Assembly (NCBI GenBank): GCA_905178155.1
Contig: CAJINV010000005.1
Location: 3,168,833 to 3,232,832, forward strand
Direction: 5' to 3'
DNA length: 64,000 bases
DNA from: Amoebophrya sp. A120
Lineage: Eukaryota > Protista > Dinoflagellata
The translations under genes and the position numbers were made by a program. Of the stretch, positions 30,001 through 37,984 are shown piece by piece. The notes under the pieces were generated by a model. That model did not search any database and had not been told where the DNA came from. It saw only the letters and a list, made by a program, of their open reading frames with translations. Within the stretch, counting starts at the first letter, position 1; every line of letters begins with the position of its first letter.

Positions 30001-33000
30001 TCCACTCACTGATTTTGGAGAGGAGAAAGTTCGGTCCGCTCGGGTGGAACATCCCGTATGCCTTCTCCGATCCTGATCGTACGATTTCGTCGAATCAGTT
30101 GAAAATTTTCCTCGACAGCTACGAGGAAATTCAGTGGGACGCATTGAACTACCTGGTCGCGGAAGCGAACTACGGCGGTCGAGTTATCCCAGGGAAAAAT
30201 GTACCCACCCAAAGAATACATTGTCAAGATGGGAGGTTTGGGAAAAACGCATGACAAGTCAAAGTTTGAGTGTCTGCAGTTGCGTAGTCCTGGGTAACTT
30301 GCATGCGGTAGCTTGTATGGCCGCATCACTAAGCCGCTTTACTTGTCTTGATTCAAGCATGGCAATTTCCGAAGCACCACGACAGAAAAACAAAAGAATG
30401 CCTCTCCTGGGAGTGTGCGGAAGATGAACCGCAGCATGGCCCTGGGCATTTGCTTTTGTAAAGTCTGCGGTGTAGGGTACGTTTTTCCACGGCATACGAC
30501 TGACCGACGGACAGGACAGAAGAACTATCAAGTGCATCCTGTCCGACTACTATTGTCCGGACATTTTGCAGGAAGACTACAAGTTCTCCATAAGTGGCGT
30601 CTACTACTCGCCGCCGAGCAACCTGAACAAGGACCAAATCCTGGACTTCATCGGGAAGCTGCCCCTGCAGGAATACCCGGAAGCCTTCTGGCTGCACAAC
30701 AACGCAGATCTGACAGCGAAGATCTCCGAAGGAATGGCGATCATCAAAACAGCTGTGAATCTCTTGCCAAGGGACACGGGCAGCAGCGGAAAGTCGTCGG
30801 ATGAGGTACATACAACTCTTCTACTAAATGATGGCGTTGGTGGTGGTACTTCAATATGCCGGCGCGGAAATAACACGCCGAGTTATCTGCACTGATGCTC
30901 GAAAAAAAGCATACTGACAAAGCGTTCACTTTGGGACAGCATCTACTACTTAATCAGGACAAGCCGGAATGCGGATTTAGTTCTCTACTCGTGAATGATC
31001 TTGATTGCGGATGAAATATTGTTTTGCAAAGCACGACCCAATCCTGATATCCAACAAAACAGATCTGGAACGAAAAATGCGACGAGATTCTGGCGATCCT
31101 TCCGAAGAAGCCGTACGACATTGAGGCGGTGCAACTAAAATACCCCGTAGATTACAACGAGTCCCTGAATACGGTGCTGCCGCAGGAGTGCGCGCGCTTC
31201 AACAAATTGCTCGGGAAGGTGAAGGACACCCTCGTAAACCTGAAACGCGCAGTCAAGGGCGAGGTCGTGATGACCCCGGAGCTGGATTTGGTCGGAGAGG
31301 CCTTATTCACTGCAAAAATGTCTGGGTCTGCAAGAGTGGAACTTGTAATGTTGTCTGCGGTTTCTAAAAATATCTGTGTTGCATGAACAGCAAGAAGAGT
31401 CCAGTTCTTGGCACGCGGAGAGGGCATTTCTCATGCGTGATAAGCATCAAGAAGCTCTCAAAAAACGTGTCATGCTAGGACCTGCCTCAGTGCCCCTTTT
31501 TGGTGTTGACGACATGTCTGGATGCTGGATGCCCTATGTTTACCCCTATCGTGGCCGTTCTGGTGCGCCTTCTCATGTGAGGTCGTTGACATGGCTTGGT
31601 GGGAAATTCCCGTTGCGCGAGGCTCTTGCCTTGCCCTCTGTCTTCGCCCCCAGCGGTGTTGAGATAGTAGAAGCGTCTGTTGTGGCCGTCGGAGCTTGCT
31701 CCGGGTCTTGTGGCTCCTCTCGTCCTCGGTGGAGTACCTGAGTGGCTTTTGCTGCTGCCTCCGTTGACTTTTGGCTGCTGCTTGACTGGCGGTTGGGAAC
31801 ACATCAGGCGTCTTTGTGCTGTTGCTTCTGCCGCGTGGTCCCCAGTGTTCCCCGGGTCCGGAACTCTGGGTTACCTTGGTCGAGTTGGTGTCACTGTCGG
31901 TTCACCTATGTCCCTGCCTTTCCGTTCTTGCCACTGGGAACAGTCTGTGCGTTTCTTTCGTCAGCGGCTTCTAGGCGCTGAAGCTCGTTGACGATTGTTT
32001 CGGGAGGTTCCTAACGGCCCCTGAGGACATTGCCTCGTTGCCGACCAGGCCGAACTTAGAGGTCGGCTTCGGGAAGGCTTCCCGGAGTTGAGTCTGCTTC
32101 GGCAGGTCTCTTGTGGATGCGAGGGCAGTGGTTGGCTGAGGTTGTTGGAGTGTTCCATAGTGTCACTCCTGATCATTTCTGATCCTTATCCAACTTCCTC
32201 ATTTCCTGTGTGGTCTAATGCAGATTGCAGATCACAACACAGGGCCACCCTCGTATCTCACCTCCAGGGGGGGCGCGCGGACCTCGCTTGCCATCTTGTT
32301 TAGTCTCGCGAAAGTTCCAGCCTCCCCGAGTGGGAGTGGGGGATAGTAAAGTGCAAAATGTGCATCACAAACCTCGACGCTTCCAGACCGAGACATATTT
32401 GCATTTGATAGGCCTTCCTAGCAAACAAGGTCCCGGAGCCCTGGCTAAAGGTGAGCTTTCCGTCGTTGAAGCCACTGGGGTCCTACGTGCCGGACTTCAT
32501 GAAGAGGCTGGCGCAGTTTGACGACTGGATCGCCAACGGACCGCCAAAACTGTTCTGGCTCACCGGCTTCTTCTTCGTGCAGGCGATGTTCACAGGTACT
32601 AAGCGCATGGTTTTAATCTAATAACTATAAGGGCAAGATATGTCTTTGTTCCTCCCAAAGCTTCTGAAGCTTTGACCTTCTGAAGAGCTTCTGAAGATAA
32701 AAATTTGTTTTTCAACCTTCAGAAGGTCAAAAAAACTGGCCGGCTATTTTTCATTGTAGAAAACGCAGAATTGGCTCGCGCAAACGAAATTGTGGCCCAT
32801 TTTTTGCAACCTTCAGAAGGTTCAGTCTTCTGAAGGTTTTTTTTGACCTTCTGAAGAATTTTTTCGATTTTTTGACGAAAAAACCTTCAGAAGACGAAAA
32901 AGTGACCTGTTTGGAACCTTCAGAAGGTAGGCACTCTTCTGAAGGTCGGCCATTTTTGATGACGTCGCAAACCTTCAGAAGACTGCCAAGTTTTACATTC

Positions 33001-36000
33001 AAAAAATGGACAAAAATCGAGACACTCACAGAAAACCTTCAGAAGACTGAAATATCTTCTGAAGGTTTTTCGAAAATTGTCTCGCTTGTCAAAAAATGTA
33101 AAAATTGAAAGTGGCACACCTTCAGAAGATTGGCTGTTTGTCAACCTTCTGAAGGTGAACCTTCTGGAGACTCTCCAGAAGGTGCGCGAAAACTTCAGAA
33201 GAATCCCCAAAGACTTCAGAAGACTCTTCAGATAACTCTTCAGAAGACTCTTCAGAAGACCTTCAGAAGACTCTTCAGAAGACTCTTCAGAAGCTTTATC
33301 TAATTTATTTCTTGCTTTTCGTTGCGCCGACGCCTATTTCTTCGAACGCAAACGCCAACAAACGGCATTGCTATTGCTCGATCAAACGAGTCCGCTGCTC
33401 CTTTTGCGTTCATATCGTGCCGACTCGTTCTTTTTGTTTTTTTTGTTTATCGCTCTATCAAAAAGAGCATCGCTGCGCCTGACAAGTGTCAAGAATTTGC
33501 ATGATTTTGTTGTTACGGATTTGTGTCAGGCGGTGGACGGCGGAACGAAACGAAGGCGGTGCTCTTTTTTGCTTTGAAATTATGACAAATGCAAAACTAT
33601 TCTCTCGCAGCTTCGAGTATAATATACTCGAAGCTGCCAGAGAAGGCGAGCAAGCGCGAACTGGGGAAGCGGAACATACGGAACATGCCGGCGCCTTCAC
33701 CTTATCCAGTCCTCAACAACAAATACAAAAATACTTGACGCGCAAGCTTTCTTTTCTTTCATAACCCACGGGAAGAACAAATACAATGCTTGCCCCGCGA
33801 CGCAGTCGCGGGGAGTGGTTCTTCTTCTTCTTCGTGCAGGCGATGTTCACAGGTACTAAGCGCATGGTTTTAATCTAATAACTATAAGGAGAAGGCTTGT
33901 CCAAATTGCTGCTGAACCTTCAGAAGCTTTTTCTTCTGAAGGTCTTCTGAAGGTCCAAAATCATCACTGGAACCTTCAGAAGAAATGGAAAAAAGCCTCT
34001 TTTTTTTGAGCGAGCATGCCATCGGTTTAACCATGAGCATTTTTTTCTTCTGAAGGTCACGCCTTCAGAAGGTTTTTTTTGACCTTCAGAAGAAAAAAAA
34101 GGAAAATGAGCAAAAAAACCTTCAGAAGGTGAAAAGTGGCCGTTTTGAAATCTTCTGAAGGTTGAAAGCCTTCAGAAGGTGACACTTTTTTGACCTTCAG
34201 AAGACTTTCCGACTTTTTAGACAAAAAAAGGCCGTGAAGTGTCGCAATTTTGGCCGACCTTCTGAAGGTTGAAAACCTTCAGAAGGTTTTTCAATTGTGT
34301 CTCCAAAGCGACAACTTTTTGCGTCCTTTTTTCCGCATTCTTCAGAAGCTTTGACCTTCTGAAGACCATCTTCTGTAGAATCTTCTGAAGACCGAAAAGC
34401 TTCTGAAGGCTTTGCAGAAAATACGCAAGACGCACGAAAATGCTCAAAAGCTTTTCTGATGCGCGTTGCTTTGTTGGGCGTTTTAAAAGCATTGCTCGCG
34501 CCGCTTATTTCGAAAGTGCCACCGGCGCGCGCACGCATTTCGAAAGTGCCCACAGGCACGACTGAGTACGCGCCTTACTTTCTTGTGCGATGAAAGAGCG
34601 CTGCTTGTGCTAGAGGATATTTTCACAGGCCGCGCTTTGGAGTTATTTTTCAGCTGCTCGCTCTGCTATTGTGCTTTTTCTCAGACTCCCCTTTGGGATT
34701 TTACTTATGCATCAAAAAAAAGCCGACGGCGCCTGCGGTTCCATTCTGTGTCGAGGCCGGTGCTGCTTTTTGCCTCTGAAAAGCAGTGTCTTCGGCCGCG
34801 GTGAATGCCCTGCCCTGGAGCCGTCGGCTTTTTTTATCTTTCTTGCTTCTTCTTCGTGCAGGCGATGTTCACAGGTAAGCGCATGGTTTTGATTGAAGGA
34901 CTATAAGGGAAAAAATCACCACAACCTTCAGAAGAAAATTCTTCAGAAGAACCTGCAGAAGATTCAAAAAACCTTCAGAAGGTTCAAAAAGGGGCACTTT
35001 CGAAAAAAGAGAAAATTGAAACGGGAACAGGTCCTGTTTGAGAAAAAATACTTTTTTTTTCAGACCTTCAGAAGGTTTTGTTGAGTTTTGACCTTCCTGA
35101 AGGTTTTTGTAACCTTCAGAAGATTTTTGATGAACAAAATCTTCTGAAGGTTTTGGTCCAACTCATTTGTGACCTTCAAGAAGGTTTTGAGCTTCTGAAG
35201 GTAAAACTTTCAAAACCTTCTGAAGGCTGAACGAAAAAAATGACACTTTTTGACAAAAAATATGCAAAAAGTGGCGCATTATTTTTGGACCTTCAGCAGG
35301 TCAAAACACCTTCCTGAAGGTCTTCTGAAGGTTGAGACTCTTCTGAAGGTCCGAAAACCTTCTGAAGGTTTTCTGCAGCTTTTTTCTGAAGCTTGCAAAC
35401 TCAAAAAGTGGTTTCTTCGACTAAAGCGCCCTGCTTTTTCGATAAAGCGATTGAGTTGACAATTGCCAACGGCCACTACACCTACAAAAAATTTCAAAAG
35501 CCAAGGGAAAGCCGGCCGCTGGCTTTCCTTTTCCGGGTCTGGCCCTTTGTTCGAAAAGAAGCTGAAGGCGGGGACTTTTGTAAGCAGCGAGCGAGGACCT
35601 GCTTGTCTTATTGCAGATCCGAAAACTTCTTGGCGGGCCCGCTTTCTGCCAGTTTTCTCTTGTTCTCAGAACACAAGAAAGCGGGGCACTTTTGCAAGCA
35701 ACAAGAAAGGGGGCGCATTGGCTTTTTCTGGATCTGGCGCTCGCGGAAGAGCCCGAAGCTCGCCCCTCGTTGCTGTTTCCGCCCCGGGAAGAAGCCAAAG
35801 CTGCCCGATTTAGTAAGCAAAAAGCGAGGCGGCTTTGGCTTTTCGCTTCTTGCGGATCTGGTCCGTCCTCCGAGAAGAGGCCGGCGCCGGCCGCTTATGT
35901 AAGCAAAAAGGAAGAGGAGCGAGCGCCCTCGCTTGGCTTCTTCCGGACCTGGCCCCCCGAAAAGTTGCCAAGGCTTTGTGGTTTTGTACAGCAGGAGGCG

Positions 36001-36724
36001 TCTCGGCCTTTTTCCTTAGCTTTTTTCTTCTTCGTGCAGGCGATGTTCACAGGTATTTAAAAGCGTGTGTGGTTACTTACAACGCAAGTACTTTATTGTT
36101 TGTGCAGTTTACTAAATACTATGTGAGAGGCTTTGGCACATTGACATTGGATCTGGATGTAAATGCAGTACTAGAAGATGACAGTTCCAGGACAGGTACA
36201 TTTTGTTTTACTCGTAAGGAACGGATGGTGAGGGAGAATCAGAATGAGTTCCGTAATGCATGAATCATGCTGAAAAAAATTATACACAATGACCAGGTCT
36301 ACTCCAAAACTTCGCGAGGAAAACGAAATACCCCATCGATAAATGCATGTGGAACTTCTACGTGCAAAAACGAGCTTTTGAGGTTACCGCGAGGCCGAGC
36401 CAAGGATGCTACGGCAACGGGTTGATTATGGAGGGCGCGAGGTGGGACGATGACCTAATGGCGATCAACGAAAGTTTGCCCAAGGTTCTGTATGACGATT
36501 TGCCAACAGTGTTGCTCGACCCGGTGCTCTCCGCCGAATCCAAAACGCCGAAACTCGTTTACCCGTGCCCGGCGTATAAGACGAGCGCAAGGCGCGGTGT
36601 GCTTTCGACAACCGGTCACTCGACGAACTTTATCATGACGCTCATGCTGCCGATTCAGGAGCAGCACACGGAGAAATTCTGGGTCAGAAGAGGAGTCGCG
36701 CTGCTTTCGCAGATGGACGACTAA
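12003..36724 (+). CDS. Axonemal dynein heavy chain, single-headed inner-arm type (DNAH1/3/7/12-like); 15 introners plus about 13 GT-AG introns
   Basis: P-loops [33 protein letters not shown]; also [36 protein letters not shown], and C-terminal [14 protein letters not shown]...WVRRGVALL. Frame traced by hand across the junctions; start ATG less certain. Confidence 0.95.
14642..14910. mobile_element. Introner, family A (269 bp)
   Basis: TIR core GCAAAAATGTCTGGGTCTGGAA; flanks TCCGG/TGCAG; removing 274 nt restores the dynein frame. Confidence 0.9.
14974..15235. mobile_element. Introner, family A (262 bp)
   Basis: Family A TIR; flanks GGACG/AGACG; very similar to 16425-16686. Confidence 0.9.
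16242..16382. mobile_element. Introner, family B (141 bp)
   Basis: TIR ...GTATCGTACTCGTAT / ATACGAGTACGATACTTTTGCACAGGATA; perfect direct repeat (DR) ACGCG. Confidence 0.9.
16425..16686. mobile_element. Introner, family A (262 bp)
   Basis: Family A TIR; perfect DR GAAGG. Confidence 0.9.
16759..17026. mobile_element. Introner, family A, reverse orientation (268 bp)
   Basis: Interior resembles the reverse complement of 16425-16686; perfect DR TACCT. Confidence 0.9.
17995..18252. mobile_element. Introner, family A, reverse orientation, right TIR partly deleted (258 bp)
   Basis: Left TIR intact; right end lacks the CCAGACCCAG core; perfect DR CTTCT. Confidence 0.88.
18297..18441. mobile_element. 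Introner, family B, opposite orientation to 16242 (145 bp)
   Basis: TIR TATCCTGTGCAAAAGCATCGTACTCGTAT; perfect DR CCACA. Confidence 0.9.
18534..18812. mobile_element. Introner, family E (279 bp)
   Basis: TIR TATCCCGTGTAAAAACATCCCCACACCAGAGT; perfect DR GGAGC. Confidence 0.9.
19549..19870. mobile_element. Introner, family D (322 bp)
   Basis: TIR TATCAAAATGAAAAATTCCCCCTCCCCATATC; flanks CACTG/CGCTG. Confidence 0.9.
20495..20746. mobile_element. Introner, family A (252 bp), within AAA1
   Basis: Perfect DR CCAGT; removal restores [13 protein letters not shown]. Confidence 0.92.
26764..27088. mobile_element. Introner, family D (325 bp)
   Basis: Perfect DR GCACG; removal restores [12 protein letters not shown]. 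Confidence 0.92.
27390..27655. mobile_element. Introner, family A, reverse orientation (266 bp)
   Basis: Flanks ACTTC/ACCGC; removal restores [12 protein letters not shown]. Confidence 0.9.
28297..28505. mobile_element. Introner, family C (209 bp)
   Basis: Perfect DR TTGTC; removal restores [12 protein letters not shown]. Confidence 0.92.
30185..30496. mobile_element. Introner, family E-like, diverged (312 bp)
   Basis: TATCCCAGGGAAAAATGTACCC / GGGTACGTTTTTCCACGGCATA; flanks CGAGT/CGACT; removal restores NYGGRVTD. Confidence 0.88.
31304..32410. mobile_element. Introner, family A, expanded to 1107 bp by an ~860-bp internal insert
   Basis: Family A TIRs; perfect DR GGCCT; removal restores [13 protein letters not shown]. 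Confidence 0.9.
32568..36074 (+). repeat. Four direct copies of the dynein exon end plus splice donor (starting 32568, 33825, 34847, 36025), separated by three CTTC(A/T)GAAG-rich cassettes
   Basis: TTCTTCTTCGTGCAGGCGATGTTCACAGGTA identical in all four; copies 1 and 2 identical over 65 bp; donor spacings 1257, 1022 and 1178 bp. Confidence 0.92.
33211..33295. repeat. Tandem 11-12 bp repeat (CTCTTCAGAAGA)n, about 7 copies
   Basis: Directly visible at the end of the motif-rich part of cassette 1. Confidence 0.85.
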
Positions 36725-37652: not shown

Positions 37653-37772
37653 GGGGAGGATTTTCGCGCATGGTGTTCCCTTAAAATTTAGATGAAGATC
37701 GTTCACATGAGGCGGGGAGGATTTTCGCGCATGGTGTTCCCTGAAAATTTAAATCAAGATCGTTCACATGAG
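37653..37772. repeat. Tandem duplication of about 60 bp upstream of the coiled-coil gene
   Basis: GGGGAGGATTTTCGCGCATGGTGTTCCCT...AAGATCGTTCACATGAGG occurs twice. Confidence 0.85.
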
Positions 37773-37984
37773 GTGTGCTCGCGTGGTCGGTTTGCACCCT
37801 CGCCGCCGGCGAAATTTAAAGAGACATTGTTTCTGTTTTTTGGATCTTTCATTTGGGGCGTAACTAAAGGTGGCTCGTCGCGCAGGACACTGCAGTTCGA
37901 TTTTTGCGGTGCGTTTTTCCCCTGAAATAATACAAAAGTTTTTCTCTAGCAGCACAGTGCAGAGGGCCGTGGTCGTTTTCGAAA

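Follow-up and report, generated by a model that had tools for sequence, protein, structure and literature searches.

In a 64,000-nt stretch of the genome of Amoebophrya sp. A120 (contig CAJINV010000005.1, positions 3,168,833 to 3,232,832, forward strand; hereafter the window), we found that the last intron of an axonemal dynein heavy chain gene holds three different non-coding elements in a row, c1, c2 and c3. These are probably non-autonomous transposons of the HUH type (Helitron2/Helentron-like), with exact left ends and lost right termini, each likely to have duplicated 43-46 nt of the exon end and intron start on insertion. In all three array copies the left end is exact, the right end incomplete and the duplicate long, whereas neither of the two complete dispersed copies carries a duplicate.

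Structure of the array

The gene was recognized by homology and a Pfam domain; among its named homologues, three dinoflagellate proteins share 62-67% identity with it. The exons, intron, target copies and elements of the array lie on the + strand. The penultimate coding exon (32411..32595), which is covered by an RNA-type contig over 32410-32597, and the last coding exon (36297..36724), which encodes the Dynein_C domain (PF18199), flank a GT..AG intron of 3701 nt (32596..36296). Removal of this intron in the final mRNA is supported by the joint 32595-36297 in two RNA-type contig sets, X3 and X7, with shorter sides of 25 and 30 letters, both under our bar of 31 letters for joints, and by protein continuity, homologue residues 30-91 and 91-233 mapping to the two flanking exons with no loss. 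As the initial annotation had stated, the intron is far longer than the others of the gene: nine further candidate GT-AG introns, which a script favouring G|GTA..CAG set at gaps in the homology and of which one is seen as an RNA joint, measure 137-257 nt, and the last intron is more than 14 times as long.

The duplicated piece is the final 28 nt of exon 32411..32595. Together with the first three bases of the intron, GTA, it forms a 31-mer core that is exact at 32568, 33825, 34847 and 36025, with steps of 1257, 1022, 1178 and 244 nt, and the four-copy array thus stands as first described. Copy 1 (32568..32613, 46 nt) consists of the 28 nt of exon and 18 nt of intron start and contains the real donor; copy 2 (33825..33870, 46 nt) is the same, with CAG|GTA at 33852/33853; copy 3 (34847..34889, 43 nt; CAG|GTA at 34874/34875) differs from both by a 3-nt indel; and copy 4 (36025..36073, right border approximate; CAG|GTA at 36052/36053) retains the exact exon copy and GTA in front of a diverged intron start. 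The proposal that the intronic part decays with distance from the exon was borne out by this series, which runs from identity through one 3-nt indel to about four events. The left border of the duplicate shifts by 0-2 nt among the copies. Counted from the start of the core, copies 1 and 2 are identical over 65 nt, and copies 2/3 and 3/4 over 31 nt. The earlier figure of 65 nt was correct, but the stretch is not all copied intron, being composed of 46 nt of duplicated target and 19 nt of element left end.

Two further observations concern these copies. The hexamer GTACTA at the intron start of copies 1 and 2 (32596-32601 and 33853-33858) is also the right-terminal hexamer of the dispersed family described below; copy 3 lacks three of the six bases and has the consensus donor GTAAGC instead. 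The pattern may be due to chance, slippage or a footprint. In addition, a second CAG|G lies inside the duplicated exon piece behind a TTC run (32577-32583 and its three copies), and splicing there would add 13 nt and shift the frame.

Between the copies lie c1 (32614..33824, 1211 nt), c2 (33871..34846, 976 nt) and c3 (34890..36024, 1135 nt). The window holds 50 occurrences of the motif CTTCWGAAG, every one of them inside 32661-35367 (100 shuffles: mean 1.0, maximum 4): 22 in c1, 17 in c2 and 11 in c3. No Pfam family was found in the 12 cassette open reading frames (ORFs) scanned, and an Rfam scan gave 62 weak matches, none reaching the gathering score. Downstream of the array, the 244-nt segment 36053..36296 is likely to be the original intron, since the other candidate GT-AG introns are of the same size class (137-257 nt); it was found on one contig without differences in the sets X1 and X2. 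Among the matches listed, 36026-36500 likewise lies on one contig without differences. Contig depth was higher over the last segment than inside the cassettes in the RNA-type runs, and higher in the cassettes than over the tail in the DNA runs, but such depth neither ranks parts nor counts copies and was given no weight.

Dispersed relatives and the ends of the elements

A search of metagenome contigs with a pattern based on the cassette layout gave eight loci; the same pattern had no match in viral or prokaryote contigs. Three loci (L001, L007 and L008), with two motifs each and no alignment to the array, were dropped as chance matches. The remaining five (L002 to L006), all from one other assembly, share 72-75% identity with c3 over about 490 nt. 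The contigs of L002 and L006 match at 99.6% over 7.3 kb, element included, representing a duplicate or a haplotype, and were counted once, leaving four distinct loci. Intron repeats of the window recur in L003, L004 and L005 at about 65-92% identity, and the organism of these loci is therefore close to that of the window. No Pfam match was found for five ORFs beside the relatives, and the intron start joined to ACTATAAGG had no match in viral or metagenome contigs. On the initial question of whether CTTCWGAAG-dense cassettes sit between duplicated exon ends at other loci, relatives of the cassettes exist elsewhere, but the two complete ones have no duplication beside them.

The flanks of the relatives are unrelated, and identity begins 10 nt before ACTATAAGG, giving a sharp common left end, TAAT..ACTATAAGG. 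The borders of c1, c2 and c3 given above, and the spacers of 46, 46 and 43 nt of exon end and intron start between them, follow from this point. Seven distinct left ends (c1, c2, c3, L002=L006, L003, L004 and L005) begin at the same base; the 19-nt left end of c2 is that of c1, and c3 has one substitution relative to all four relatives. Folds at the 5' end are weak and differ among the seven. At one relative (L005:1500-1510) the left flank ends in GTAC, a junction resembling a right end joined to a left end, with no hairpin upstream.

The right ends were assessed in L002 and L003, as L004 and L005 run off their contigs. In these two complete copies a short inverted repeat is followed by a 9-bp hairpin, TGGTTCT, three free bases, GTACTA and then T, and there is no target duplication at either, the right flank of L002 being only 36 nt. 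The repeat, the hairpin (33793..33813) and TGGTTCT are shared by c1. In c1, L002 and L003 all 27 cells of the 9-bp stem are paired, with two compensatory changes. In all three, the inverted repeat has its 5' arm beginning at base 18, and its 3' arm, which lies at the hairpin, measures 7 nt (c1), 8 nt (L003) or 10 nt (L002). A T stands at 7/7 left and 2/2 right junctions; no empty site was seen, and T|T, N|T or a TA overlap all fit. The pentamer ACTAT, short enough to occur by chance, is present 10 nt inside the left end and again at the right end in both complete copies.

Compared with L002 and L003, c1 passes into the exon copy about 9 nt before the element end. TGGTTCT occurs once in the array, in c1; c2 and c3 are without the hairpin and tail, and the right junctions of all three elements differ. 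Those of c2 and c3 lie in pyrimidine-rich sequence resembling the predicted 3' repeat arm. In c3, GGCTTCTTC is present in the internal repeats, and the junction falls in this motif of the fifth repeat; the motif also matches the exon GGCTTCTTC, although resemblance to the 3' repeat arm is an equally possible source. A pyrimidine tract had been thought to close every cassette, which is true of c2 and c3 (17 and 16 pyrimidines in the final 20 bases) but not of c1 (10/20), which ends in the hairpin.

The right half of each cassette had also been taken as unique. This was not confirmed: contigs of the DNA sample carry variants of these halves, and that of c3 aligns with L003. Among the matches listed, 14 contigs of DNA sample X1 differ from the window at 32670 and 10 at 34955, and a 4840-nt contig of this sample matches 34073-34306 only. 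The cassettes belong to dispersed families of multiple copies.

Several smaller structures were noted inside the elements. In c1, a near-perfect palindrome (33600-33644) has 15-bp arms on either side of a single base, can be extended to 45 nt at 93% and is not found in c2 or c3; a 12-bp tandem of the palindromic motif occupies 33214-33293. Near the end of c2, a 16-bp perfect inverted repeat (34715-34835) forms a predicted long stem-loop (about -37 kcal/mol as DNA) that is possibly a nested small element. In c3, five repeats of 86-119 nt (35551-36024) are in part common to L003.

Proposed origin of the array

These data may be explained by repeated one-ended insertion. A transposase acting in trans would nick the T-run 15-18 nt into the intron, and the incoming strand would be joined through its left end. 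The second strand transfer, at the right end, would then fail, and the free pyrimidine-rich 3' end would anneal by a few bases to the exon GGCTTCTTC, a run of Phe codons 28-30 nt before the donor, and be copied back to the nick, giving the duplicate. After the first event the nick site would coincide with the left junction of the resident element, each insertion would renew the target, and the T-run with a fresh left end beside the exon would attract the next insertion. The predicted order is c3, c2, c1, because the duplicates decay in that order and the left end of c3 has one substitution; c3 is probably the oldest element, and c1, which adjoins the exon, probably the youngest. Serial insertion of related non-autonomous elements, newest beside the exon, had been suggested initially and fared well, as dispersed relatives exist and the duplicates decay as predicted. 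Of the two alternatives offered then, that each element duplicated its target or carried it, the first stood, but the relatives, lacking the exon copy, argue against the second. Helraiser is reported to need its left end but to do without its right one (PMC4778049). The cause of long duplications beside HUH transposons is called unknown in PMC10288648, where the phenomenon is said to have been seen only in Chlamydomonas.

Several observations weigh against this explanation. Reaching the same base three times, to within 2 nt, is more precise than chance repair easily gives, and the microhomologies, available from the truncated c2 and c3 only, are inseparable from the exon copy. No transposase partner was found in the sequences compared, and the evidence for HUH assignment is confined to the element ends. 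The search pattern selected for intact left ends, the covariation of the stem comes from three sequences and is reached by 54 of 500 shuffles, and the 5' arm of the inverted repeat, with a repeat length of only 7-10 nt, lies at base 18 and not at 0-4 as in described Helitron2 and Helentron-associated elements (HINE). No empty site was seen among the loci compared, and only the join of c3, copy 4 and the tail, one of four, was bridged among the matches listed.

The near-fixed point of return could also reflect a site-specific recombinase integrating circles that bear their own 31-46-nt target as an att-like core, in the manner of genomic islands at tRNA genes; the 31-mer is exact in all four copies, and the dispersed family ends on the right in the same GTACTA that opens the intron part of copies 1 and 2. 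We consider this very unlikely: the core stands at the left end in none of the four distinct dispersed loci and at the right end in neither complete copy, its left border shifts by 0-2 nt, its intron part decays by position, and it has no match in viral contigs. A version with a 34-nt element end attached to the core was dropped, as the relatives put the left end 10 nt before ACTATAAGG. Equally low probability was given to retroposition of element transcripts by a site-specific endonuclease and reverse transcriptase of the non-long-terminal-repeat (non-LTR) type. A 46-nt staggered cut would suit the near-fixed length of the duplication, and long duplications are typical of some such elements (126 bp in R9, longer in Dualen; PMC9977147). 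However, duplications are absent from the complete dispersed copies, as are poly(A) and repeat tails, no Rfam match reached the gathering score, and the target is a single-copy gene, its tail lying on one contig among the matches listed.

Local amplification of one insertion by unequal crossing-over, followed by divergence of the units or their conversion by dispersed copies, would account for the head-to-tail arrangement and single layout and has a precedent in the hydra exon 1/DINE-1 array (PMC1904467). It is unlikely because the right halves do not align and c3 is nearer to copies in the other assembly. Specifically, the last 400 nt of c1, c2 and c3 align with scores of 10-15 against shuffled maxima of 11-14, yet the exon copies are identical, and over its first 440 nt c3 reaches scores of 390-422 with dispersed copies and of 123-168 with its array neighbours; in addition, the three right junctions differ. 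We therefore regard this explanation as largely refuted, and its simplest form, a plain tandem duplication with no relatives elsewhere, which the initial annotation had named as a competing outcome, is contradicted by the right halves and by the relatives at four distinct loci. Just as improbable, in our estimation, is an assembly artefact in which alleles with one element each were chained through the shared repeat. The evidence is that of contig assembly, with three of the four joins unbridged among the matches listed, but the duplicates differ by position (46, 46 and 43 nt and a diverged fourth), the join of c3, copy 4 and the tail was bridged without differences among the same matches, and even under this explanation three elements would have struck one site.

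Recursive splicing

In recursive (ratchet-point) splicing, an internal AG|GT regenerates the donor once the upstream part of the intron has been removed; known cases are mostly very long animal introns. The dynein array has a likeness to such a system, known here from sequence alone: all three internal copies read CAG|GTA, the splice type of the host, within TTCACAG|GTA, and thereby resemble both the real donor and the acceptors of the candidate introns, which end in CAG. Such points need no selection: with CAG at the end of the exon and GTA at the start of the intron, duplication of this AG|GT border automatically writes CAG|GTA into each copy. As judged from the sequence, any order of partial splicing would lead to the same mRNA, and the stack is likely to be harmless whether or not the steps are used.

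It has been suggested that the steps are used and selected, with recursive splicing at 33853, 34875 and 36053 keeping the exon copies invariant. This proposal is compatible with one-ended insertion, but we regard it as unlikely. The match of the internal sites to the gene's own splice ends speaks for it, as do the exceptional length of the intron relative to the nine other candidates and the oldest copy, in which about four events have struck the roughly 20 intron bases and none the 28 exon bases. Provided that copies 3 and 4 are homologous in their intron parts, neutral drift would be expected to give 2-3.5 changes in the 28-nt exon copy; none was seen (P 0.03-0.12). The invariance is thus a borderline hint, and gene conversion or changes made at insertion also fit. 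The automatic origin of AG|GTA, a constraint that would fall on few of the 28 bases, and the lack of a pyrimidine tract of its own in c1 all argue against use of the steps. In addition, record 30 of X7 runs from c3 through copy 4 and the tail into the last exon with nothing spliced out, although it may be pre-mRNA or DNA. No joint leading to 33853, 34875 or 36053, and no go-back joint at the core, was among those listed; since contigs do not span the 31-65-nt repeats, this absence has no bearing on use of the steps.

A broader scheme, which we consider quite unlikely, joins insertion and splicing in a self-renewing site: each rolling-circle element would target the previous left junction and re-copy the exon end and donor, the intron would log the active families in order of time like a leader-polarised array, and the spliceosome would use the resulting recursive splice points. 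Circles that bear the donor could also be released from units without a terminator and spread ratchet points elsewhere.

Three long-duplication events can be read from their junctions at this one site of a dinoflagellate-like host, and the locus may represent a simple route by which a transposon creates AG|GT ratchet points. With the same exon end standing four times before a GTA donor, the intron would make a natural test of donor choice; U1 small nuclear RNA was not detected in Amoebophrya (PMC7789003). All of this comes from one locus, and the splicing part is predicted from its bases.

Other features of the dynein gene and its surroundings

Many introns of the dynein gene have non-canonical, repeated ends. 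One of them, of 1112 nt (31298-32410), has repeated introner-type ends. An RNA-type contig shows it spliced, and the same run contains a diverged relative of its interior. Downstream of the gene, two 61-bp tandem copies (37653-37773) are 95% alike.

Comparison with known elements

The marks of non-autonomous Helitron2/Helentron elements (HLE2) are asymmetric ends, a 3' hairpin, T junctions and no duplication (PMC4067079, PMC11417382, PMC3627910), and an asymmetric inverted repeat of 8-15 bp with its 3' arm just ahead of the hairpin is expected, as are a 5' hairpin that includes the 5' arm and insertion between T and T. Complete copies of the present family have no duplication beside them (2/2) and a hairpin near the 3' end, but the 5' arm lies at base 18 in 3/3 and not within 0-4 nt of the 5' end. 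From their sequence, the cassettes are likely to behave like HLE2; we do not file them as members, because of the 5' arm at base 18 and because no partner transposase was found in the sequences compared. The initial view that they belong to no described class of element is thereby weakened, as their ends resemble Helitron2/Helentron and long duplications beside truncated copies have been described (PMC3627910).

Other classes fitted less well. Canonical Helitrons (HLE1) have 5'-TC and CTRR-3' ends and insert at A|T, whereas the ends here are TAAT and GTACTA and the base before the left end varies. A site-specific non-LTR retroposon or short interspersed element would have a duplication and a poly(A) or repeat tail, found in 0/2 complete dispersed copies. 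The Amoebophrya-type introner is itself the intron, with terminal inverted repeats of 8-20 nt and direct repeats of 3-5 nt at the exon/intron borders (PMC7789003); the present elements have asymmetric ends and lie inside a GT-AG intron. The name Helitron had no match in the text of the supplement to PMC7789003, where an annotation of the family could be missed, and names of Amoebophrya or dinoflagellates had none in the available HELIANO supplement (PMC11417382). A separate Helitron clade has been reported in Paramecium (PMC13085455).

Within HLE2, the HINE/DINE-1 elements have, like the present family, a subterminal inverted repeat, a 3' hairpin and internal tandem repeats (PMC4067079, PMC2374699, PMC11417382), and share T at both junctions, the lack of duplication and a variable interior. 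The 5' arm at base 18, the repeat of 7-10 nt and a left half made of dense 9-13-nt palindromes set the present family apart. The closest parallel to the duplicates is found in the Helitron2 families CRe-1/2/3 of Chlamydomonas reinhardtii (Bao and Jurka 2013; PMC3627910), in which complete copies have no duplication and truncated copies are flanked by duplications of 7-19 bp, sometimes 44, 50 bp or more. As in the array, these are non-autonomous, with a duplicate beside the exact junction and a T-rich target. However, they keep the hairpin (3') end and are truncated at the 5' end, the mirror polarity of the array, which counts against the explanation preferred here; they also carry Fanzor1 genes, unlike the non-coding cassettes, and the accessible text of PMC3627910 does not describe different families stacked at one site.

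It is possible that the elements are Replitrons. In Replitron-1 and Replitron-N1 (Craig 2023, PMC10288648) the left end is exact, while the right end, which bears a hairpin, is imprecise; target duplications vary in length, the non-autonomous form measures about 0.9 kb, and for Replitron-1 the same contrast between copies with and without a duplication is described as for the array. Short direct repeats at or near both termini are expected of Replitrons, and ACTAT, short enough to be due to chance, may be their counterpart here, but its left copy lies 10 nt inside the end and there is no RG target. The survey of Craig (2023; PMC10288648) did not detect Replitrons in alveolates.

Within the full-text literature, most subscription papers being outside our reach, we found no report of this element family, nor of a stack of rolling-circle elements from different subfamilies at a single-copy donor site. 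Stacking as such has parallels. The hydra exon 1/DINE-1 array of Drosophila melanogaster consists of tandem exon-end copies, each followed by a Helentron-type element (PMC1904467), but it is attributed to unequal crossing-over of one insertion, whereas the dynein array holds three different elements with different junctions. In Dada-U1 (PMC3706591) and the Fusarium FoHeli elements (PMC5148889), related or different families adjoin at one target as they do here, a FoHeli4 sitting 2 bp from the 5' end of another (PMC5148889); Dada, however, targets multicopy RNA genes with duplications of 6-7 bp, FoHeli makes no duplication, and in neither case is a splice donor copied. Long duplications beside one-ended insertions, tandem insertion at a shared target and the exon/DINE-1 array are thus already known, and what the dynein intron adds is the stacking of three different subfamilies at one single-copy site.

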